A DNA stretch of 64,000 nt from an uncultured Desulfurococcales archaeon (GTDB lineage: Archaea > Thermoproteota > Thermoprotei_A > EX4484-217-1), in contig CAZLZO010000002.1 of assembly GCA_964564025.1 (NCBI GenBank), positions 15,936 to 79,935 of the forward strand. The letters are read 5' to 3'. The first letter of the stretch is position 1; each line of letters opens with the position of its first letter. The notes below the pieces were generated by a model. It did no database searches. It was given only the letters and a program-made list of their open reading frames with translations, and was not told the origin of the DNA. The position numbers were made by a program, and so were the translations under genes. Positions 44,688-57,396 of this stretch are shown in pieces.

Positions 44688-46502
44688 TCAACTTGAAACA
44701 TCTATTCTAACTACGATAGGGTCATTCACTACACTATCTTTAATTATAGCATGAAACATCGGTAAATAGTATAATGCTTTTCTCACCATATCATATCTGT
44801 TATCAGTAACGAATCCGGCAAATGTTTTAGCTATATAATCTAAATTCTCCGGCTCTGAAAGTTTGAAAGATATTTTAGTGACTGCATTTGCAACTATGGA
44901 TTCATCGATGTCCAATGGTTGCTGAGTTATAACTACAAAGCCTATACCATATTTTCTACTTTCCATCATTAGTTTTGCTACAAGCGATGGTTCAACTCCC
45001 CTCCTGCATAGCCTATGAGCTTCATCTATTACTATGTAGTTTAGAAGTCTTCGTTTCTCTCCAGTAGCGTACATTTTGTGAGCTATTTTTCTAAGAACCG
45101 TTTCAGCGAGGATAGATTTAACGTAGTCTCCTGGCAAGTTGGCCATAGCTATTACACTTGGTTTTTCAAGAAGCTTTTGAAACTCTATTGTGGTGTTTCT
45201 AAATATAGTGATGGAGAGCGTTCTTAAATATGGCTTTAAACTTTCATATCTAGCTCTTTCAGCTGAAGTTCTCGCATATTCTATTCTTTTCTCAACAACC
45301 TTCAGTAATGTTTGAAAAGTTGGAGGAGTGTTATTCCAAGATTCCTCATCATCTATTAGTATTCCCTTTTCCGCATAAGCTTCTTCAATTAAGTCCTCAA
45401 GAACTGTTCTTTGGAGGTTTCCTAGCTTAAAAACTCTTTGCAGTGTATCAGCTACTTGAACTGTTCTCTCTCTTGGCGATGCACCATCAAGTTCTAAAGG
45501 GTTAATTGATATTTTAGATGCGTCTACAACTACACCATTAAGTTGTTTGATTAAATCTACGTATTCATTATGAGGATCAAGTATTAACGAAGGAATACTC
45601 CATGTAAGGTAGAGTTCTTTCACCAATTTTTTAGCTAAGCTAGACTTACCTGTGCCACTAGTTCCTGTGATTAATACATGGTAATTAACCTGCATATAAG
45701 GGTTAAAAGCGTACTCTTCATCCTCTATTCGCCAATACCATGAGGGTGATTTTGTTGCAGTTATTCTATTCTTTAACCACTCATTAACAGGTTTACCATA
45801 AGTTAACGATGCCACGAGTTTTCCTAAAACAATACCCTCTCTTACGACTTCTAGCCTCTTTCCTCTTGATATTTCCTTCGGCGGAATATGTATTGAATAG
45901 GGTATTAGTATCCATGAGAGAAGAGGCACTAAAATAGTTGCTTGACCTAATTCACGTATAAATAATGAGGAAATTAAGACTCCTGTTAAATATATTATTT
46001 CGTCAAGTAAAGTTAGTGGTCTTAAAATTATTAATAGTAATGAAAGAAGCATTATTATAAGTACCTTCTTAGGTTTTATTTCAATGTTAAAACTTCTCCT
46101 CTTGATGCTTTCTATGAGAAAATCTCCCTTCTTAATTATGAAGGTCCATGAATAGTACAGTGTTATGTAGGTTGCAAATATAGTTAGATAGGTTATAGGG
46201 TTTTTTATGAAGGAGTCTATTGAGAATACTAAATAGTATAGTGATGTGCTTCTCACTAAAAATGCTACGAAAAGCACGTACCTTTTTAAAATGTTCATTC
46301 CAAACGTTAATGCTAAGGTGCTTACGAAAGCCAGTGTTGGAGATTCTAAAAGCGTAGCTGTAATTAGTTGAAATGTTATTATCACCGTATAAAGAATTGG
46401 TACTATGATTAAAGAGCCAACATTACTTACTAAAGCTAACAATAGGAATAATGCTACGATGAAAACTAAGTTTACTACTAAGATAACTTTATTAATACGC
46501 AT
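44688..46502 (-). CDS. Membrane-anchored HerA/VirB4-like (DUF87) P-loop ATPase, a CedB-like paralog
   Basis: 5-6 N-terminal TM helices. Walker A GTSGTGKSS, the DUF87-type NPLE motif and Walker B IVIDEAHRL. 604 aa. Confidence 0.6.
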   Translation of the reverse strand: MRINKVILVVNLVFIVALFLLLALVSNVGSLIIVPILYTVIITFQLITATLLESPTLAFVSTLALTFGMNILKRYVLFVAFLVRSTSLYYLVFSIDSFIKNPITYLTIFATYITLYYSWTFIIKKGDFLIESIKRRSFNIEIKPKKVLIIMLLSLLLIILRPLTLLDEIIYLTGVLISSLFIRELGQATILVPLLSWILIPYSIHIPPKEISRGKRLEVVREGIVLGKLVASLTYGKPVNEWLKNRITATKSPSWYWRIEDEEYAFNPYMQVNYHVLITGTSGTGKSSLAKKLVKELYLTWSIPSLILDPHNEYVDLIKQLNGVVVDASKISINPLELDGASPRERTVQVADTLQRVFKLGNLQRTVLEDLIEEAYAEKGILIDDEESWNNTPPTFQTLLKVVEKRIEYARTSAERARYESLKPYLRTLSITIFRNTTIEFQKLLEKPSVIAMANLPGDYVKSILAETVLRKIAHKMYATGEKRRLLNYIVIDEAHRLCRRGVEPSLVAKLMMESRKYGIGFVVITQQPLDIDESIVANAVTKISFKLSEPENLDYIAKTFAGFVTDNRYDMVRKALYYLPMFHAIIKDSVVNDPIVVRIDVSS

Positions 46503-46588: not shown

Positions 46589-49423
46589 ATGCTTAGCAAT
46601 AAAAACAAACATACTTCAAATGAAGAGAATGTGTTTAGCATACTAAATCCTAAACTCAAAAGTGTTATTCAAAAATATGGATATTTAGAGCCTACAAAAG
46701 TTCAGAGTAAAGCCATACCGCTCATACTCAAAGGCTATAATATATTAATTGTGGCACCGACAGGGGCAGGAAAAACTGAAGCAGCACTATTTCCCATATA
46801 CTCGAAAATTATTGAAGAGAACTTTGCAAATGGAATTCAAGCACTTTATATAACACCTCTTAGAGCCTTAAATAGAGATATTCTGGTAAGAATGGGGAAA
46901 ATAGCTAAAGACATAGGTTTAAATATAGCTGTAAGACATGGTGATACAACCTACTATTTTAGAAGAAAGATAGCAGAGAATCCGCCACACTTGCTAATAA
47001 CAACTCCTGAAACTCTTCACTACCTTCTGGTTCACGCTATTATGAGAAAAGTTCTTAAAAGTATTAAATGGGTTGTTGTTGATGAAGTAAACGAGTTAAT
47101 GGGTAGTAAGAGAGGCGTAATACTTTCAGTAGCTTTGGAAAGACTTGTTAAGCTCTGTGGAAGGGAATTTCAAAGAATAGGGCTTTCAGCGGTTATAGGA
47201 AATGTTGAAGCAGCTAAAAGGTTTTTAGGAGGACCTAGATATGTTGAAGTTGTTGAAGTATATTATCAGAAGCCATATGAGATTATTGTCGAAGTTCCTC
47301 AGCCTACAAGTGAGGATGAAATAATTGCTTTACGTGAAGGCATTTCACCTAGCACCATGGCTAGATTAAGAAGAATAGTTGAGATCCTTGAAAAGTCTAA
47401 ATCAGGTATAGTCTTCACCAACACAAGAGATTTGGCTGAGCTCTTATCCTCAAGATTAAAGAGAACATTCAATATTGATGTCGGAGTACATCATGGCAGC
47501 TTATCAAGAAATGTTAGATTAACTCTAGAATCAGAATTTAAACAAGGCATCATAAGATACGTGGTAGCTACATCATCTTTGGAATTAGGTATAGACGTGG
47601 GTGAAGTAGATGTAGTGATTCAGTATGGTTCTCCAAGACAGGCAACAAAGCTTCTACAAAGAATAGGTAGGTCTGGACATAGAGAAACTGAGAAATCGAA
47701 AGGCTATGTTATAGCCTTAGCTAACGTAGATGACGCATTAGAATCCCTTGTATTAGCAAGAAGAGTTATTGATAAAAATTTGGAAAGTGAAAGCACTTAT
47801 GAAAACCCGCTTGACGTTATAGTTTATGAAACTGCTGGATTGCTTCTTGAATATGGAGAGATCTCCGTAGACGAGGTCTTTAAGATATTGAGGAGATCTT
47901 TCTACTACAGGAAGTTAAGCTATGCTACTCTTATTGAAACATTAAATTTTGCTTCGGCGATAGGTGTCATTTCTTTTGACGGAAAAATATTAAGGAAAAC
48001 TAGGAGAACTAAGATTTACTATTATGATGTTTCAATGATACCTGATGTAAGGCATTTCTTAGTTAAAAATATTATAGACAACACTATAATAGGGCAGCTT
48101 GACGAAGATTTTGTGATTTCATCACTTAACGTAGGAGCTAAATTTTTGCTTTCAGGAAAGGTTTGGGAGACATTAGATTATGATGAAAAATACGTTTATG
48201 TTAAACCTGCTGAAGATTCTTGGGGTGCTCTTCCTAAATGGGAGGGTGAACTTATACCTGTTGATTATAAGGTTTCTAGGGAGGTAGGCGCTTTAAAACG
48301 TAGAATAATAGAGAAGGGACTCACTGTTCTCAGAAAATATCCGACTTCTCAATCTCTTCTCAATTTCATTGAAAAGCAAATTAAGGAACATTATTCTAAG
48401 ATGGGATGGATTCCTACAGATAGAGAGGTTGTAGTTGAGATAATTGGAGGCAAAAATGTTATTGTAAATTCACATTTAGGTAGTAAAGGAAATTTTGGCC
48501 TAATGCTGTTGCTTACATACTTTCTAAGAAAACGAGGAGTAAATGTTGTAAGCAAAAGTGATCCGTATAGAGTAGTTCTGATGAGCAACTCAATAGTGCA
48601 TTTTGAGGAAATAATTAATGACTTAATTAGCATTAACAATGAGGATTTAAAGTACTTACTAAGAGAGAATATTAAGAAGAGTAATGTGTTTAAATGGCGT
48701 TTGTACAACGTGGCCAAAAGGTTTGGAGCTATAAGGAAAGATGTTAGTGTAAAAAAGGTTTCAAACATTTTAGCATACTATGTTGATACACCTATAGGTT
48801 ATGAGGCATTTAATGAAATAATTGTTGATAAAATAGATTTAAATGCTATTTTCGAGTTCATTGACTCAATTAGAAAAGGTAGGGTTAAAGTGAAATTTGT
48901 TTACTTAGAAGATTATTCACCGCTAACTATGCAAGCCTTAACAACTTATTCTTACTATGATGTTTCAGTAAAGCTCACTCCCATGGGAGAAATAATAGAG
49001 TTATTTAAGCGCAGAGTTGTAGAAAAGCGGGTTAAGCTTGTGTGTTTAATGTGCGGTAGTGTTATAGACGAAGTTAAGATTGCTGATCTTCCAGACTATC
49101 CTAAGTGTAATATTTGCGGGTCAGGTTTTTTAACAATAACATCTACGGGGTCAAGAGACGTAGAAATTATTGTGCGCAAGATGCTGAGAAAGCTTAGACT
49201 AAATCCTGCTGAAAAAGCTATGTTAAGAGAAGAAAAGTTAAAGGCCGATCTTGTGTTAAGATTTGGTAAACCAGCTATAATTGCTCTTTCAACATTTGGT
49301 GTTGGATATAAAACTGCGGCGAGAATAGTTGGAAAGTTTTTTGAAAATGAGAGTGAATTTTACAAAGCTCTCATAGAAGCTGAAACATTATTTATTAGAA
49401 CAAGAAGATTCTGGAAAAGCTAA
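46589..49423 (+). CDS. lhr: Lhr-type SF2 DEVH-like helicase (second paralog)
   Basis: APTGAGKTEAA, ITPLRALN, VDEVNEL, then SAV and a C-terminal Lhr-core-like domain with a zinc ribbon (CLMCG...CNICG). 944 aa. Confidence 0.8.
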   Translation: MLSNKNKHTSNEENVFSILNPKLKSVIQKYGYLEPTKVQSKAIPLILKGYNILIVAPTGAGKTEAALFPIYSKIIEENFANGIQALYITPLRALNRDILVRMGKIAKDIGLNIAVRHGDTTYYFRRKIAENPPHLLITTPETLHYLLVHAIMRKVLKSIKWVVVDEVNELMGSKRGVILSVALERLVKLCGREFQRIGLSAVIGNVEAAKRFLGGPRYVEVVEVYYQKPYEIIVEVPQPTSEDEIIALREGISPSTMARLRRIVEILEKSKSGIVFTNTRDLAELLSSRLKRTFNIDVGVHHGSLSRNVRLTLESEFKQGIIRYVVATSSLELGIDVGEVDVVIQYGSPRQATKLLQRIGRSGHRETEKSKGYVIALANVDDALESLVLARRVIDKNLESESTYENPLDVIVYETAGLLLEYGEISVDEVFKILRRSFYYRKLSYATLIETLNFASAIGVISFDGKILRKTRRTKIYYYDVSMIPDVRHFLVKNIIDNTIIGQLDEDFVISSLNVGAKFLLSGKVWETLDYDEKYVYVKPAEDSWGALPKWEGELIPVDYKVSREVGALKRRIIEKGLTVLRKYPTSQSLLNFIEKQIKEHYSKMGWIPTDREVVVEIIGGKNVIVNSHLGSKGNFGLMLLLTYFLRKRGVNVVSKSDPYRVVLMSNSIVHFEEIINDLISINNEDLKYLLRENIKKSNVFKWRLYNVAKRFGAIRKDVSVKKVSNILAYYVDTPIGYEAFNEIIVDKIDLNAIFEFIDSIRKGRVKVKFVYLEDYSPLTMQALTTYSYYDVSVKLTPMGEIIELFKRRVVEKRVKLVCLMCGSVIDEVKIADLPDYPKCNICGSGFLTITSTGSRDVEIIVRKMLRKLRLNPAEKAMLREEKLKADLVLRFGKPAIIALSTFGVGYKTAARIVGKFFENESEFYKALIEAETLFIRTRRFWKS

Positions 49424-52248: not shown

Positions 52249-52400
52249 CGTCGGTATTACTTAAATAATTGATTGAAAAATCATGAACATTATCTCTCGG
52301 TATTTTTAAATAATTATTTAAAGAAATTATTGGGTATTACTTAGTAGTAGATGGTAAATATGTTTTTCTACATATTTTCGTTCGACGTCAGTATTACCCA
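52249..52400. promoter_or_regulatory. Intergenic region with four copies of a (C/G)GGTATT(A/T) motif
   Basis: cgtcGGTATTAC (52249-52260), tcGGTATTTT (52298-52307), ggGTATTAC (52332-52340) and cgtcaGTATTAC (52385-52397). They lie between the divergent gene starts at 52138/52195 and 52419. Confidence 0.3.
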
Positions 52401-52418
52401 TGTGAGTGTGTATTAGGA

Positions 52419-52628
52419 ATGCCTGTAGTATATGTTTGTAAAAACTGTGGTTTTGAATTATATAGGTTTGAACGTGTAGGTCAAGATTACTATGGTTTAC
52501 CTACACCTAGCGAGATTATGAACTGGTATAGTGGAGTTTGTCCAAAGTGTAACGCTAAATTGGAGAGACCAAGCTTAAATAGGATTAAAATTGCCTTTAG
52601 AGGGAAAATTATTAGCTTAAAACAGTAA
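52419..52628 (+). CDS. Small zinc-ribbon protein
   Basis: CKNCG...x24...CPKCN. 69 aa. Confidence 0.4.
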   Translation: MPVVYVCKNCGFELYRFERVGQDYYGLPTPSEIMNWYSGVCPKCNAKLERPSLNRIKIAFRGKIISLKQ

Positions 52629-52860
52629 GTCTGGGACCAAAAATTTCCTTTAAATTTCTTTCATCAAGTCTTTCTCCATTTCCCTCTCCTTTGCTATAAC
52701 TATTTATTAACATTATTATTGCTGTTCTTATTGCTTCGCTTCTACTGGAAAAGTATCCATTCTTTACTAATTCATCAAGTCTATCAAGAAGTTCGCGTCT
52801 TACTTTAAAAGTTACGACAACTGTATCGTTAAGACATAATACACTCAAAAGAATTATCAC
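52612..52860 (-). CDS. Ribbon-helix-helix (CopG-like) DNA-binding protein
   Basis: The segment VVVTFKVRRELLDRLDELVKNGYFSSRSEAIRTAI is a classic RHH (beta-strand then two helices). 82 aa. Confidence 0.5.
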   Translation of the reverse strand: MIILLSVLCLNDTVVVTFKVRRELLDRLDELVKNGYFSSRSEAIRTAIIMLINSYSKGEGNGERLDERNLKEIFGPRLTVLS

Positions 52861-52917
52861 CCAAAAGTATTACCGTAGTAGCAGCTATAAAAGTATTTTG
52901 AGAATTATCTTAAATAA

Positions 52918-53211
52918 TTGCTTTTTAAAAGCCCAAAAAAGCCTTTTAAAAAGCAACATATTCTTAGGGGGATAGTTGTGGATATAGAGGCTCTAATTAA
53001 TGATTTAACTAATAGGGTAGTTATTGCAGCATGGGCACTCTTCATGCTTTCATGGGCGATTGGATGGCTTCTGAAGGGTTCACCTATTCCAATATATAGA
53101 GTAAAGAGGTTCGGACAAGATATAGTTGAAGATGCTATTTTAGGCGCATTTTGGCTAGCTGTGGGAACAAGTATTTTCGCTTTAATAAAGTACATAGCTT
53201 CATCAACTTAG
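52918..53211 (+). CDS. Small 2-TM membrane protein (CedA1-like position)
   Basis: 97 aa with two hydrophobic helices. First gene of the membrane/ATPase cluster. Confidence 0.4.
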   Translation: MLFKSPKKPFKKQHILRGIVVDIEALINDLTNRVVIAAWALFMLSWAIGWLLKGSPIPIYRVKRFGQDIVEDAILGAFWLAVGTSIFALIKYIASST

Positions 53212-53245
53212 TCGGTGTAATGAGAGATACTACAAGGGTTAAGTA

Positions 53246-54694
53246 ATGGATGAGTTTCTAATAATCGCTTATTCATTAGCTATATTGACTTATTACTTAG
53301 GCGTACTTATATACTTGTTACCTATACCTGTTTGGAGCGTTAAGAAGTGGGCGCCAGCTTTAATTTATGATTCGTTTGCAGTAACGATTTTGGTTTTATT
53401 GTTTACATCAATAATTGAAGCTACATCCTATTTTGGAGGTATTTTGGGGGTCAGTTGGGACTTCTACTTTAACTGGCTTGTTGAAAGAATAGCAGTTTTG
53501 GGTTCATTTATTTCATTACTAATAAGTGTTTCTTTAGCTATATCCCAAGCCGGAGGAAGAGCTTTAGTTACGTCTTTCTTAGGACCAATAACTAGTATAG
53601 CCACATATACGCTCATAGTCATGGAGTTCTTCTTCGTTTTAGGATTAGTGTTTAAAGAATATTTCGCAAAAATACTTGCCTTCGGAATTTTACTTTATGC
53701 AGTACCATTTAGATTAGCTAGAAGTGCAGGAGCATCATTAATAGCTCTGTCTATAGTTTTTACAATAGCTCTTCCGCTTCTCCCAACGTTTGTGAATGTT
53801 ATGAGCGTGAGCGAAAGTAACCCTCTTACAAACATGAATATAAGTGAGCCACTTAAGCCTAAAGAGGATCTTGGAGTATTTTTTGCTAAAGGAATAGTTA
53901 AAGATATTACAGGAGAGCCTATACCATATATCAAAACGGAATGGTTTCTTAAAGAAAATAGCATAGATCCCATAGCTACATATTATACTGACGAAAATGG
54001 CTTTTATAATGCCGGAAGACCCTTCGGAGGGTTGCCTGCAAAAGTAAATGGATTTTACGTTAAATTTAGCTATTTAGGTATTAGCATAAGCTCTATGAAT
54101 GTTTCAATAAACGAATTCTTCTACAACCCCTATTTGGATCCCAATGCAGACTATGTACATGACTTTACATTAAACAACGTTATTTACTTTGGCCGCACAG
54201 TTCTTTTAATACTACAGAGTGAAGTAAAGAATGCTGAAGTTAATAAACAAGGAAATACGTACGTTCTTAACATAGTTTTAAATGGACCACAAGAAGCCAT
54301 AATCGCCTATGTTCCTGAAGTCGCAAAAATAACAAAATTGAAGGTAAATTATAGCGAAATTGAATTTACTAATAAAAGTTATATTTGGAATAATGTAAAT
54401 GTTTCAACTATAAACTTTCACTTGCCCAAAGGATCTACGGTTATAGAAGTATCCTATGTTATAGTTGGTGAAGAAAACATCCAACTTGTAGATAAAGGGT
54501 ATTTTAGCGATATAGATAACACTTTAAACTCTAGCATTAATGTTCAAAATTTAGGTGAAGCCATAGGTAAAGTGTTCTTTCAATGGATAATATTGCCTGT
54601 AACTTACTTAACAATTCTTATTTCGATAACTTACTCTTTTGCATATACTCTTGGAGGTAGGAAATTACGCTTACCGATAAGAGATAGGGTGTAA
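53246..54694 (+). CDS. Polytopic membrane protein (CedA-like 6-7 TM core) with a sequon-rich extracellular domain of about 250 aa and a C-terminal TM anchor
   Basis: 6-7 TM helices in the first 210 aa. This is followed by a beta-rich domain with at least 6 N-x-S/T sequons (NMNIS, NVSIN, NYSEI, NKSYI, NVSTI, NSSIN) and a terminal TM helix. Confidence 0.5.
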   Translation: MDEFLIIAYSLAILTYYLGVLIYLLPIPVWSVKKWAPALIYDSFAVTILVLLFTSIIEATSYFGGILGVSWDFYFNWLVERIAVLGSFISLLISVSLAISQAGGRALVTSFLGPITSIATYTLIVMEFFFVLGLVFKEYFAKILAFGILLYAVPFRLARSAGASLIALSIVFTIALPLLPTFVNVMSVSESNPLTNMNISEPLKPKEDLGVFFAKGIVKDITGEPIPYIKTEWFLKENSIDPIATYYTDENGFYNAGRPFGGLPAKVNGFYVKFSYLGISISSMNVSINEFFYNPYLDPNADYVHDFTLNNVIYFGRTVLLILQSEVKNAEVNKQGNTYVLNIVLNGPQEAIIAYVPEVAKITKLKVNYSEIEFTNKSYIWNNVNVSTINFHLPKGSTVIEVSYVIVGEENIQLVDKGYFSDIDNTLNSSINVQNLGEAIGKVFFQWIILPVTYLTILISITYSFAYTLGGRKLRLPIRDRV

Positions 54695-54702
54695 GGTGGT
54701 TA

Positions 54703-54885
54703 ATGGTGAATCCTTTTAATTTTAAAACAATGCTAATATTATACCTAGTTAACGTACTTTACGTAACTTACATTATCGTAAAGAACAGTGCTAACCTAAA
54801 TACCGTGTTAACTGTTTTACTAGTAATACTTGTTGTTATTCCTATGATTGTACTCATCATATATCATAGAGACGTTTTAAAATAG
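54703..54885 (+). CDS. Tiny 2-TM membrane protein (CedA2-like position)
   Basis: 60 aa with two TM helices. The gaps to both neighbouring genes are 9-11 nt. Confidence 0.4.
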   Translation: MVNPFNFKTMLILYLVNVLYVTYIIVKNSANLNTVLTVLLVILVVIPMIVLIIYHRDVLK

Positions 54886-54895
54886 GTGGTAGGCT

Positions 54896-56737
54896 ATGGA
54901 CTATAATGAAAAAATACCAGTGCTTATAATTGTTATTGGAGCATTTGTTTTAGCTTACGTTTTCTTGAAGGATTTTGTTGCATTAGAGCATTACATAGCC
55001 TTATTCTTACTGCTCATTTTTGCTTATAATATACCGTTGGTTTTTCCAAAGCTTACATCGAAAATAATACCTCGTAAGCTAGAGTTTAGCGAAGCAAACA
55101 TGATGGTTAAAGGTAACATCTTAGTTGTGAAAAAAGATAAAACTGTAAGTGGCTTAGCGGTATATGTGGTTGATGATGTTCCTTATAGTTACAAAGATGT
55201 AACCTCAGATTTCCTTATACAACAAATCAGATCTTTTACAGGCTTTATAACAGCAACGGAAAGTGATGTTTCAATAGTTCTATTAAAGAAGAAAGCAAAT
55301 ACATCATCTTATGTTAAGAATATTGAGAGACAGCTCATAAATTACAAGATAATGGTGGCAACAGATCCTGCAAATCCTCAGATTTTAAAGAAACTTAGAA
55401 GATTAGAAAAAATATATGATAGGATAGTTAAAGGCGAAAAGCCCATTAGCATAAAGTACTATATAGTAGTTAAAGCACATGCTTCATCGGAAAGGGGATT
55501 GATAAAGGCTATTCAGGAAAGATCACGTACAGTAATAACGTCATTTAAAGCCTCAATGGGTTTTGATGTTAGAAAAGCAACTGAGGACGAGGTCTTAGAA
55601 GCAATAAGTCTAGGTATTCTTAAAGAAACTAAACATAAGATTACGTTGGAGTCCGACGTAGGCTTCATGATGCCCATAGGATATGTTAAAAGGCCTAAGG
55701 TTTCCGGTAAGGGTATTTATCTAGGTGAAGACATAGACTATGGTACACCAGTTTTTTACGATTTCGAAAAATACTTAACGAAACATATAGTGGTAATAGG
55801 GCCTACAGGTAGGGGTAAAACAACATTCCTTTACACAATAGCGAAAAGGGCCATAGATGAATATGAAATTCCAGTATGGATCTTTGACTTAAGAGGAGAG
55901 TTTATTGGCTTAAAGTCTACAAGTGCTTTTGAAATAATAGATCCTGAGAGAAACAACATTAACATATTATACACGTGGTTTACGAGTCCTAGAATAAGGG
56001 CAAAGCAAATAATTGAGCTTATTAAAAGCATAGCATCATTAACTTCCAAGGAGGAATACTTACTATATATGTCACTTATAAAAACGTACGAATCAACAAA
56101 CAATCCTAGCTTCGAATACTTAATGTCAACAATAGCTGAGATCTCTAAGAACTATGGTGATAAGGATGTTGAGTTTAGTTTACTAACAAAACTTGAGTCT
56201 TTAAAATCAAAGATATTCTTCAACGGTAACGTATATGCCCTTAACTTTAAGAGGCCTCTAATATTTCTTCTACATAGGTTGCCTGAGGAGTATCGTAAAT
56301 TATACACTTTAGCATTGCTTCAAATCTTAGCTAACTATATTTTAACGCTAACGCCAACAAATACTATACGTTGCTTAGTAATACTTGATGAAGCATGGCG
56401 CTTTATGGATACACGTTCTGGAGCAAAAATTATTAAGTCCTTAGTAAAGGAGGGACGAGGCTACGGACTTGCAGTGGCTTTAGCTTCCCAAGATATATCT
56501 GATTTTCCAAAGGAAATTTTAGATAATGCTGGAACAATAGCTGTTTTTGGGTCAAATAGTAAAGATTACATTGAAAGCGTAAGCAAGTTTATGAAACTAA
56601 ATGAGACAGAAAAGGAGAGAATGTCATGGTTAAGAACGGGAGAGGTCCTTATTCGAATAATTGGAGACCCCAGACCATTATGGGTTAAAATACGGCCCGA
56701 ACTCGTGGAGACTCAAGAGAAACAAATAAAAAAGTAA
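54896..56737 (+). CDS. Membrane-anchored HerA/VirB4-like ATPase (CedB-like DNA translocation ATPase)
   Basis: Two N-terminal TM helices, Walker A GPTGRGKTT, an IIDPE motif and Walker B VILDEAWRF. 613 aa. Final gene of the operon. Confidence 0.65.
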   Translation: MDYNEKIPVLIIVIGAFVLAYVFLKDFVALEHYIALFLLLIFAYNIPLVFPKLTSKIIPRKLEFSEANMMVKGNILVVKKDKTVSGLAVYVVDDVPYSYKDVTSDFLIQQIRSFTGFITATESDVSIVLLKKKANTSSYVKNIERQLINYKIMVATDPANPQILKKLRRLEKIYDRIVKGEKPISIKYYIVVKAHASSERGLIKAIQERSRTVITSFKASMGFDVRKATEDEVLEAISLGILKETKHKITLESDVGFMMPIGYVKRPKVSGKGIYLGEDIDYGTPVFYDFEKYLTKHIVVIGPTGRGKTTFLYTIAKRAIDEYEIPVWIFDLRGEFIGLKSTSAFEIIDPERNNINILYTWFTSPRIRAKQIIELIKSIASLTSKEEYLLYMSLIKTYESTNNPSFEYLMSTIAEISKNYGDKDVEFSLLTKLESLKSKIFFNGNVYALNFKRPLIFLLHRLPEEYRKLYTLALLQILANYILTLTPTNTIRCLVILDEAWRFMDTRSGAKIIKSLVKEGRGYGLAVALASQDISDFPKEILDNAGTIAVFGSNSKDYIESVSKFMKLNETEKERMSWLRTGEVLIRIIGDPRPLWVKIRPELVETQEKQIKK

Positions 56738-56754: not shown

Positions 56755-56841
56755 TGGAACCCACGGCCCGTGTAACCTCAACCCGCGTCGCGGGTAGGGG
56801 TGAACACGGGAGACTCCACCCCTAGGCGTCATGGCCCCCCG
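56755..56841. ncRNA. GC-rich (about 68% GC) island of about 90 nt, a candidate structured RNA of unknown class
   Basis: Sharp GC spike in an AT-rich intergenic gap. Contains hairpin-capable segments (GGGGTG..CACCCC, CCCGCG-T-CGCGGG). The only overlapping ORF (56713..56946, minus) is probably spurious. Confidence 0.3.
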
Positions 56842-56871
56842 TATACTCTTCTTTTCTTTTTCATGTAGAGG

Positions 56872-57396
56872 ATGATGCTGTTGAACCTCATACCTATTCA
56901 TGGGGAATCGTATTTTATAGTTGAACGTAAAGGAACGTTCAATCAAATACTAAGGTTTCTTTATTACGATGAGAATGAATACTATTATCGCTTAATACAT
57001 AAGCCTGAAGAATACTATGTTGAAATAAGTAGGCTCCATAATGCTATGGAGGATTTTCTTTCAAAAGAAAAAATATTTGTAAACGGTGAAAGAGTTAAAC
57101 CTAGAGTTCTCATGGTCAATATAGACTTTGCTGGTTATAGAGATCACCCATATATACTTTACTTCATACGTTTCAAAGGTAATTTAAGGAAGGGAGAAAA
57201 TGTTTTCGAAGACTTTTATGAAGAGGAAATAGCGGAGTACGATTACGAAATATACTGGTTCTTCCCTGAAAAAGCAAAAGTAAAGGAGATATATATTTCA
57301 GGGGATTTTGACCTGGTAAAACCAAACATACTTTATATTTGGACGAGGAGAGGCGATAGAATAAGCGGATATGAAAAAATAGTTTTTGAAATTTAA
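56872..57396 (+). CDS. Hypothetical protein (Tyr/Glu-rich)
   Basis: 174-aa ORF with a 4-nt convergent overlap with priL. Confidence 0.4.
   Translation: MMLLNLIPIHGESYFIVERKGTFNQILRFLYYDENEYYYRLIHKPEEYYVEISRLHNAMEDFLSKEKIFVNGERVKPRVLMVNIDFAGYRDHPYILYFIRFKGNLRKGENVFEDFYEEEIAEYDYEIYWFFPEKAKVKEIYISGDFDLVKPNILYIWTRRGDRISGYEKIVFEI

Follow-up and report, generated by a model that had tools for sequence, protein, structure and literature searches.

The Ced system of Sulfolobales, represented by Saci_0568, Saci_0569, Saci_0567, and Saci_0748 of Sulfolobus acidocaldarius and by CedA, CedA1, CedA2, CedB, CedD, and CedE of Saccharolobus islandicus, is described in the literature as importing DNA, not exporting it. 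Ups pili provide cell contact in these archaea, in which no Ced pili have been observed (PMC11823120). A related Ced system is that of Aeropyrum pernix and other Desulfurococcales (PDB 8DFU; Beltran et al. 2023, PMC9905601), which has a chromosomal cedA1-cedA-cedB order and a pilin without a signal peptide. The Ted system of Thermoproteales (TedA, TedB, and TedC) follows the same chromosomal three-part VirB2/VirB6/VirB4 logic, but it shows no recognizable sequence similarity to Ced, and the signal peptide of TedC is cleaved (PMC9905601). Here, we analyzed a ced locus in a 64,000-nucleotide (nt) stretch of DNA from an uncultured Desulfurococcales archaeon (contig CAZLZO010000002.1), and this whole stretch is referred to as the window. 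The encoded proteins match the Ced models, and the best explanation of the locus as a whole, which we hold with high confidence, is a chromosomal Ced operon, i.e., a domesticated, minimal type IV secretion-like machine that includes a CedA protein with an ectodomain. The operon is of a common Desulfurococcales type and does not overturn the current understanding of the system.

The window locus shares the gene order of the A. pernix locus as well as a pilin devoid of a signal peptide, and the CedA protein encoded by an Aeropyrum sp. metagenome-assembled genome (MAG) is also long, with the same layout. Unlike the window, the Aeropyrum, Acidilobaceae, and Ignicoccus loci have no small gene for a protein with two transmembrane segments (2-TM) and encode CedB proteins of 452 to 497 amino acids (aa), whereas a gene pair for a ribbon-helix-helix (RHH) and a Zn-ribbon protein lies upstream of ced in the window clade and not in Aeropyrum-type loci. 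With the Sulfolobales Ced, homology extends over CedA1, the TM bundle of CedA, its TM7 plus tail, and full-length CedB. The CedA and CedE proteins of Sulfolobaceae are, however, about 260 aa long and carry a loop of 24 to 68 aa, compared with about 250 aa in the window CedA. The 2016 Ced paper is said to place the cedB gene of Sulfolobales apart from the cedA cluster, unlike the arrangement in the window. No sequence-level match was found to bacterial VirB6/TrwI (the stalk of the R388 type IV secretion system [T4SS], PDB 7O3V) or to extended VirB6 proteins such as TraG of the F plasmid. In contrast to the latter, the extra domain of the window CedA is not a terminal extension but a tandem beta sandwich within the last loop, which is re-anchored by a TM segment, and no VirB5, VirB8, or VirB10 partners of the kind seen in bacterial VirB6 systems occur at the window ced locus.

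Gene content of the ced operon

The original prediction had read this locus as four consecutive, closely packed plus-strand genes in the order of a ced cluster. The four open reading frames (ORFs) were found as stated (Table 1), separated by 34, 8, and 10 nt, with the third gene qualifying as cedA2 by its slot only. The block recurred across 18 species-level genomes, whose ced-carrying loci were compared for synteny and CedA length, at CedA identities of 27 to 89%. This conservation indicated that the four ORFs are real genes and did not arise by chance. The proposed Ced identity was supported by strong profile similarity of the 482-aa and 613-aa proteins to CedA and CedB, respectively.

CedA was the best NCBIfam family for the 482-aa protein (E = 1.8e-49), with residues 3 to 193 aligned to positions 6 to 198 of the 259 in the profile. 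A short CedA from Candidatus Aramenus (Sulfolobaceae; P0083), which passes the family cutoff at 367 bits, is 37% identical to residues 3 to 198 of the window CedA (E = 9e-32), and residues 448 to 478 of the window protein align again to residues 226 to 256 of P0083, the last TM segment and tail of the short form. The protein is thus a VirB6-like polytopic protein of the CedA type, the N terminus of which is homologous to CedA1, and it was not matched by the Pfam and NCBIfam VirB6/TrbL models of the bacterial family.

The 613-aa protein matched the NCBIfam family DNA_import_CedB (NF041017) best (E = 3.9e-82, 276.8 bits), and the alignment ran from residue 10 to residue 599 (positions 5 to 586 of 590 in the profile). 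CedD came next at 84 bits, and plasmid VirB4/TraC models scored 30 to 46 bits. Matches in Pfam were to AAA_10 and the DUF87/HerA central domain, and the relatives in PDB were of the HerA type. With two hydrophobic segments at its N terminus (residues 6 to 24 and 33 to 51) and its Walker A and B motifs, it proved to be the TM-anchored, HerA/VirB4-like ATPase that had been predicted, and it belongs to the CedB-type membrane-bound ATPases of the VirB4/HerA clade.

CedA1 scored 120.9 bits against Ced_CedA1 (NF041797), over the curated cutoff of 100, and its residues 21 to 94 (numbered in the 97-aa ORF) matched the A. pernix conjugation-type pilin in PDB entry 8DFU (phmmer, E = 3.4e-23). It has two hydrophobic segments, is VirB2-like, and falls among the CedA1-type two-helix pilins without a signal peptide. 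Mean column identity is 68% across 13 loci, with a conserved start, MD(I/L). Although the ORF and the two hydrophobic segments agreed with the description of a 97-aa 2-TM protein, the length did not. The pilin core begins at GTG 52978 (MDIEALINDL..., 77 aa), where both the alignment and the conserved Met start. The 60 nt from 52918 to 52977 carry indels among relatives that are not multiples of three, along with a Shine-Dalgarno (SD)-like GGGGG at 52967 to 52971, and the gene caller gave 77 aa for cedA1 in an 89%-identical relative, the source of the public gene calls that were compared with the window. For these reasons, cedA1 most likely starts at GTG 52978 rather than at TTG 52918, and the first 20 codons of the 97-aa ORF are probably 5′ untranslated region (UTR). 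As a separate observation, a newer Pfam family, PF27251 ("CedA1"), matches CedA1 and also the N terminus of CedA.

The 60-aa protein has two hydrophobic segments, and a 2-TM ORF of 51 to 69 aa occupies the same slot before cedB in 13 of the 18 loci (within L001 to L014). No such ORF is found in the Aeropyrum, Acidilobaceae, L017, and Ignicoccus loci, in which CedA is immediately followed by a shorter CedB. These small proteins are poorly conserved, sharing no invariant column. The window protein gave no NCBIfam match, no hhalign link to CedA1, only noise in a PDB profile search, and no detectable similarity to Sulfolobales CedA2, so it is CedA2 by position and architecture only. CedA2 is not conserved between species (PMC9905601). 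Assignment to VirB3 was rejected, as the match to Pfam PrgI (VirB3-like; E = 0.032) is too weak and likely reflects TM composition bias. The N termini of CedB also vary: those of L010 (7606 to 9345) and L012 (7618 to 9387) are without the two TM helices, with the small gene kept, and in L015 to L018 a CedB of 452 to 497 aa has a single TM segment, with the small gene absent. By analogy, this variation would recall the split-or-fused VirB3-VirB4 arrangement of bacteria.

The ced block is chromosomal and vertically inherited, as indicated by conserved gene order in relatives and by uniform GC content. The order 3′-phosphoadenosine-5′-phosphosulfate (PAPS)-reductase-like gene, cedA1, cedA, cedB, orf174, PriL, small heat shock protein (sHSP), and methionyl-tRNA synthetase (MetRS) was kept at 36 to 89% CedA identity. 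At 43 to 89% identity, a fuller order was retained, consisting of the genes for PAPS-reductase-like protein (−), hexapeptide transferase (−), Zn-ribbon (+), and RHH (−), followed by cedA1, cedA, the small gene, cedB, orf174, PriL (−), sHSP (−), and MetRS. The PAPS-reductase-like gene still adjoins ced in Pyrodictiaceae and in Ignicoccus pacificus. GC content is even across the region (32 to 37%), and the neighbors are housekeeping genes (PriL, MetRS, sHSP, PCNA, and Lhr helicase) in an order common to many species.

These data bear on two other readings of the locus. If it belonged to an integrated conjugative element or plasmid as its transfer module, i.e., as a DNA-exporting T4SS, the homology of CedB, CedA, and CedA1 to VirB4, VirB6, and VirB2 and a second VirD4/VirB4-like membrane ATPase nearby would be accounted for. 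Nevertheless, the housekeeping genes that flank it keep their order in many species, its composition is not anomalous, no relaxase or integrase was found among the genes scanned between 39950 and 60970, and the Ced families fit best (277 bits for CedB versus 30 to 46 bits for plasmid VirB4/TraC), which makes a mobile element very improbable. An antiphage defense module of the HerA type, formed by the 613-aa ATPase and its membrane partners, would agree with a PADLOC mad8 match of 82.6 bits, with several further HerA models, and with NCBIfam HerA_antiphage at 52.6 bits. However, these matches cover just the generic ATPase core and fall far under the full-length CedB score, a partner nuclease or Sir2 gene is missing, and PADLOC matches neither the pilin nor the VirB6-like partner, leaving a defense function scarcely credible. 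Both readings were rejected in view of the conserved synteny, the even GC content, and the generic nature of the HerA-core matches in PADLOC.

Long CedA proteins are the family norm

The 482-aa CedA had been regarded as unusually elaborated, a view that was not sustained by its relatives. In all 18 genome loci, the cedA ORF encodes 450 to 528 aa with a TM6-ectodomain-TM7 layout, as exemplified by the Aeropyrum sp. MAG (464 aa), Acidilobaceae (450 aa), Pyrodictiaceae (497 aa), and the cultured Ignicoccus pacificus (528 aa). When 1.84 billion cluster representatives were searched exhaustively with HMMER, 186 CedA relatives were retrieved. Among the best 150 of the 186, for which sizes were recorded, 110 were 430 to 530 aa long and 24 were 240 to 310 aa long. 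The spacing between the PFRxxR motif and the last TM segment was sharply bimodal (24 to 68 aa or 224 to 283 aa), and the short forms were CedA and CedE of Sulfolobaceae, plus one other lineage. The long, ectodomain-bearing CedA is therefore the family norm and probably the ancestral form, and the Sulfolobus CedA is a reduced form and the exception. In the Ced literature that was covered (including PMC9905601 and PMC11823120, the original 2016 Ced paper not being among it), CedA is described as a protein of 6 to 7 TM segments, with no mention of an ectodomain.

To place the domain in the history of the family, two comparisons are available. The ectodomain profile of the window clade matched that of divergent long forms, of which only the TM part is sequence-detectable, with an hhalign probability of 98.9% (E = 3e-17, 196 columns), and this match argues that the domain was acquired once. 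In a neighbor-joining (NJ) tree built on the TM columns, a single clade held eight short forms and was nested five nodes deep among long forms, and a ninth short form (P0062, 282 aa) stood apart within a long-form clade. The tree suggests at least two losses of the ectodomain and not a gain.

The present mechanistic picture of archaeal DNA exchange is based on Sulfolobus, in which CedA has the short form found in a minority of the family. Most CedA proteins carry an extracellular module of about 240 aa, which structural models of a machine without VirB5, VirB8, and VirB10 probably must place. Ced systems outside Sulfolobales are likely under-annotated, because long CedA and CedB proteins stay under the equivalog cutoffs and are labeled "hypothetical." In public records, this label ("hypothetical protein") is attached to the long CedA proteins P0002 to P0014, P0040, P0067, and related clusters, and one long CedA record bears the name "carboxypeptidase regulatory-like domain-containing protein."

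Structure and topology of the CedA ectodomain

The AlphaFold2 (AF2) model of the window CedA (mean predicted local distance difference test [pLDDT] score of 81) consists of an N-terminal helical bundle (residues 2 to 186), beta strands between residues 214 and 406, and a C-terminal helix (residues 433 to 468). The inserted region comprises a linker, two transthyretin-like beta-sandwich domains designated D1 and D2, and a stem (Table 1). Fold searches with the ectodomain pointed to transthyretin-like/CarboxypepD_reg domains, Gram-positive pilin (CnaB-like) domains, and SlaB, which forms the S-layer stalk in Sulfolobus. PF13620 (CarboxypepD_reg-like) was matched by 6 of 94 CedA family members, the window protein itself being unmatched.

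For topology, Lys and Arg (K/R) were counted in 85 long and 9 short family members, and means of 2.4, 2.0, and 2.3 were obtained for loop 1, the invariant PFRxxR loop (loop 5) before TM6, and the C-terminal tail, respectively. The ectodomain is acidic and Asn-rich, with 18% charged residues versus 27 to 30% in cytoplasmic proteins, 11% Asn, 0.8% Arg, and no Cys, and its composition resembles that of surface proteins of hyperthermophiles, unlike that of cytoplasmic ones. Since K/R concentrate in loop 1, loop 5, and the tail, while the inserted domain is acidic, residues 187 to 442 face outside according to the positive-inside charge bias. Charge distribution and the AF2 model therefore agree with the earlier proposal of an extracytoplasmic, beta-rich domain of about 250 aa with a C-terminal TM anchor.

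At least six N-x-S/T sequons had been predicted, and exactly six were found (residues 198, 285, 368, 376, 385, and 428), all of them within residues 187 to 442. The resulting density of 23 per 1,000 aa is 4 to 7 times that of cytoplasmic proteins of the window. Relative to shuffles of this N-rich domain, however, six sequons compare with 3.45 expected, which is not significant (P = 0.11). Across the family, sequons average 3.6 versus 1.7 expected from composition. Sequon enrichment was thus discarded as proof of glycosylation for the window CedA, given the P value against its own composition, and only the family-wide trend holds.

A pair of beta-sandwich domains, each of about 100 aa, is less than about 10 nm long. 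The suggestion of a conduit spanning the S-layer is accordingly considered unlikely, since the domain would be too small and both of its ends are tied to the membrane.

Proposed working of the Ced machine

By homology to the Ced systems of Sulfolobus and Aeropyrum and to bacterial VirB2, VirB4, and VirB6, the two-helix pilin CedA1 would be stored in the membrane and polymerized with lipids into a conjugation-type pilus. CedA would serve as a VirB6-like platform or channel for pilin extraction and DNA passage, and CedB, as a membrane-anchored, VirB4/HerA-like hexameric ATPase, would power assembly and translocation. The small 2-TM protein would occupy the slot of CedA2, which is also the position of VirB3 in bacteria, and a CedD-like second ATPase would be supplied from a gene 6.4 kb away. 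In the pseudo-periplasm, the ectodomains of CedA may oligomerize into a short stalk or collar that surrounds the base of the pilus and stands in for the periplasmic parts VirB5, VirB8, and VirB10 that archaea lack, and the faster-evolving D2 would face partner cells or the envelope of the cell itself.

A more far-reaching proposal combines several of these elements: the ectodomain would be an ancestral and required pilus base replacing VirB5, VirB8, and VirB10 that was lost upon takeover by Ups pili, and a ced-specific RNA (see below) would control expression or stability of the transcript. As a whole, we regard it as doubtful. If it were true, loss of the ectodomain when Ups pili took over cell contact would account for the fact that no Ced pili have been observed in Sulfolobaceae.

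Alternatively, within the same Ced operon, the ectodomain could be mainly a recognition or adhesion module for glycans or S-layer proteins of the partner or own cell and not a collar, in a species-recognition or mating-pair role comparable to that of Ups pili in Sulfolobales or the C-terminal domain of TraG in F-like plasmids. D2 indeed evolves far faster (mean pairwise identity of 22%) than D1 (42%), the TM core (58%), or CedA1, with its 68% column identity, and transthyretin-like, CnaB-like, and SlaB-like folds are common in surface and carbohydrate-associated proteins. Furthermore, short forms are found in the only lineage with Ups pili (for the distribution of Ups, see PMC9905601). On the other hand, an ectodomain of this small size, with both ends fixed to the membrane and located beneath the S-layer, would hardly reach another cell, no ligand-binding motif was identified in it, and D1 is fairly well conserved. 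We therefore consider recognition unlikely to be its main role and prefer the collar.

Several points weigh against a Ced operon with an outward-facing CedA collar as set out here. CedA reaches 168.7 bits versus an equivalog cutoff of 330, and CedB reaches 276.8 bits versus 700; both models were built on short Sulfolobales proteins and would not assign names to the two window proteins. The outward placement of the ectodomain derives from the charges flanking TM6 and TM7 and not from a dedicated topology predictor, and AF2 gives a single continuous helix at residues 105 to 152, where a 7-TM topology requires two spans, so that a count of seven TM segments is tentative. In single-sequence hhalign comparisons, ectodomain homology was weak for Aeropyrum (E = 0.02), with E = 6e-4 for Ignicoccus, and the NJ tree is a rough one, midpoint-rooted and without support values. 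Finally, the collar, although preferred, is inferred purely.

Table 1. Features of the ced locus and its surroundings in the window
Feature	Position	Strand	Description
aCcr1-box-like palindromes	52253-52261, 52333-52350, 52390-52398, 52866-52883		Flank the Zn-ribbon/RHH pair
Zn-ribbon gene	52419-52628	+	69 aa, two CxxC pairs
RHH transcription factor gene	52612-52860	−	Putative aCcr1 family member; divergent from cedA1
Shared divergent promoter	52866..52893		aCcr1-box-like palindrome AGTATTACC, then GTAGTAG, beside TATA-like CTATAAAAG
cedA1 ORF	52918-53211	+	97 aa from TTG; likely true start GTG 52978 (52978..53211, 77 aa)
cedA	53246-54694	+	482 aa
CedA residues 1-186	53246..53803	+	VirB6-like TM bundle, TM1-TM6; first ~65 residues homologous to CedA1
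CedA residues 187-442	53804..54571	+	Ectodomain, ~250 aa, inserted in the TM6-TM7 loop
Ectodomain linker, residues 187-207			Flexible, low AF2 confidence
D1, residues 208-305	53867-54160	+	CarboxypepD_reg/transthyretin-like beta sandwich
D2, residues 306-410	54161-54475	+	Fast-evolving beta sandwich
Ectodomain stem, residues 411-442			Helical, continuing into TM7
CedA residues 443-482	54572..54694	+	TM7 and basic cytoplasmic tail GGRKLRLPIRDRV
2-TM gene in cedA2 slot	54703-54885	+	60 aa
cedB	54896-56737	+	613 aa
CedB Walker A, residues 302-310	55799-55825	+	GPTGRGKTT
CedB Walker B, residues 496-503	56381-56404	+	ILDEAWRF
Structured RNA element	56764-56833	+	70 nt, 27 nt past the cedB stop; three-helix hairpin, invariant single-stranded tail CACCCCUAGGC
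T-run	56843-56860	+	After the RNA element
orf174	56872-57396	+	174 aa; 52-91% identity in relatives; Tyr- and Glu-rich
Candidate cedD	44688-46502	−	604 aa, membrane-anchored VirB4/VirD4/HerA-class ATPase, 6.4 kb upstream of ced

A structured RNA element follows cedB

The RNA element downstream of cedB has a GC content of 55 to 67%, against a background of 34%. It is not a tRNA, and as a member of a known family it was rejected for want of an Rfam match at an E value of ≤1. A covariance model (R1) built from six close loci found it in five further loci, down to a CedA identity of about 27%. In these 11 genome loci, the element lies 3 to 44 nt downstream of cedB and always on the cedB strand. 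A pattern scan of metagenomes gave nine stretches, and all six with enough context had the element directly 3′ of cedB; one pattern match, L024 (11 bits), was dismissed as chance. Copies in this position were present in the window, L001 to L005, L007 to L010, L012, L022, and L025 to L029. In L007, orf174 is located about 900 nt beyond the element, which therefore goes with cedB and not with orf174.

In an independent MAFFT alignment of the 11 copies (A9), 90.9% of cells were paired, versus 76.9% in shuffles, and none of 500 shuffles reached the observed value. Both sides change in 6 of the 12 pairs, and the paired share in slid controls was 20 to 59%. The conserved U·G pairs assign the RNA to the cedB strand. 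Its internal loop shows an invariant UGA on the 3′ side and, in most loci, GA on the 5′ side (AA or UA in the closest relatives of the window), and it may loosely recall a kink-turn or tandem G·A motif. The tail is complementary to GGGGUG-type SD-like sequences. An alternative pairing of the tail with the 3′ arm was compensated in one copy of A9 (L004) and contradicted in another (L005). Judged by these alignments, the element appears as a conserved, covarying, ced-specific, and previously undescribed RNA, and it could function as a 3′-UTR stability or termination element, as a cis-regulatory element, or as a separate small RNA. Together with the aCcr1-like operator described below, this cedB-linked RNA offers leads on ced regulation outside Sulfolobales.

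A putative aCcr1-like operator lies upstream of cedA1

The RHH protein matched Pfam RHH_1 (E = 5.7e-7) and, at 39 bits, NCBIfam aCcr1_fam, for which the cutoff is 60. The divergent intergenic region between its gene and cedA1 is 57 nt long, and a promoter block within it, AAGTAWTACCGTAGTA..ATATAAAAGTATTTT, is invariant in 7 loci, although their CedA proteins are only 43 to 89% identical. ANTTTC is the damage-response motif of the Sulfolobales type. By eye, this short and lineage-specific motif was not found in positions 52861 to 52977. The window palindrome fits the published 9-nt aCcr1-box of Sulfolobales (PMC9976878). RGTAWTACY occurs eight times in the 64-kb window versus 3.1 times expected, and four of the eight occurrences fall within positions 52253 to 52874 (about 620 bp). 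The boxes sit between the RHH gene's TATA box and its start codon, the geometry expected for autoregulation. This arrangement suggests an autoregulated aCcr1-like factor that putatively also acts on the ced promoter, and repression of the back-to-back ced promoter by the RHH protein is possible.

The RHH gene adjoins ced in only 6 of the 18 loci, the closest clade. The Zn-ribbon protein is 72 to 97% identical where CedA is 43 to 89% identical, and its gene and the RHH gene overlap at their 3′ ends by 17 nt. In L009, the Zn-ribbon gene lies 5 kb from ced and is therefore not tied to the operon. Thus, the idea that the two upstream genes could act as regulators holds in part: the conserved operator by the shared TATA box speaks for the RHH gene, its location on the opposite strand and its adjacency to ced in only 6 of 18 loci speak against it, and the Zn-ribbon gene has no link to ced.

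Flanking genes

On the downstream side, orf174 has no match in Pfam, NCBIfam, PADLOC, or PDB. It is convergent with PriL, with a 4-nt overlap. It was rejected as a Ced component because its synteny tracks PriL and not cedB, being located 1 kb from cedB in L007.

On the other side of the operon, the candidate cedD gene is divergent from a gene for an Lhr-type helicase (46589 to 49423). In the encoded protein, a polytopic domain of about 210 aa forms the N terminus, and the Walker A and B motifs are GTSGTGKSS and VIDEAH, respectively. Its best NCBIfam family is CedD (NF053655), at only 62 bits (cutoff, 600) and with the match limited to the ATPase domain, and it is related to CedB with a phmmer E value of 2e-15. 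CedB and CedD are reported to co-occur in Desulfurococcales, and a CedD-like ATPase near the window ced locus fits this report.

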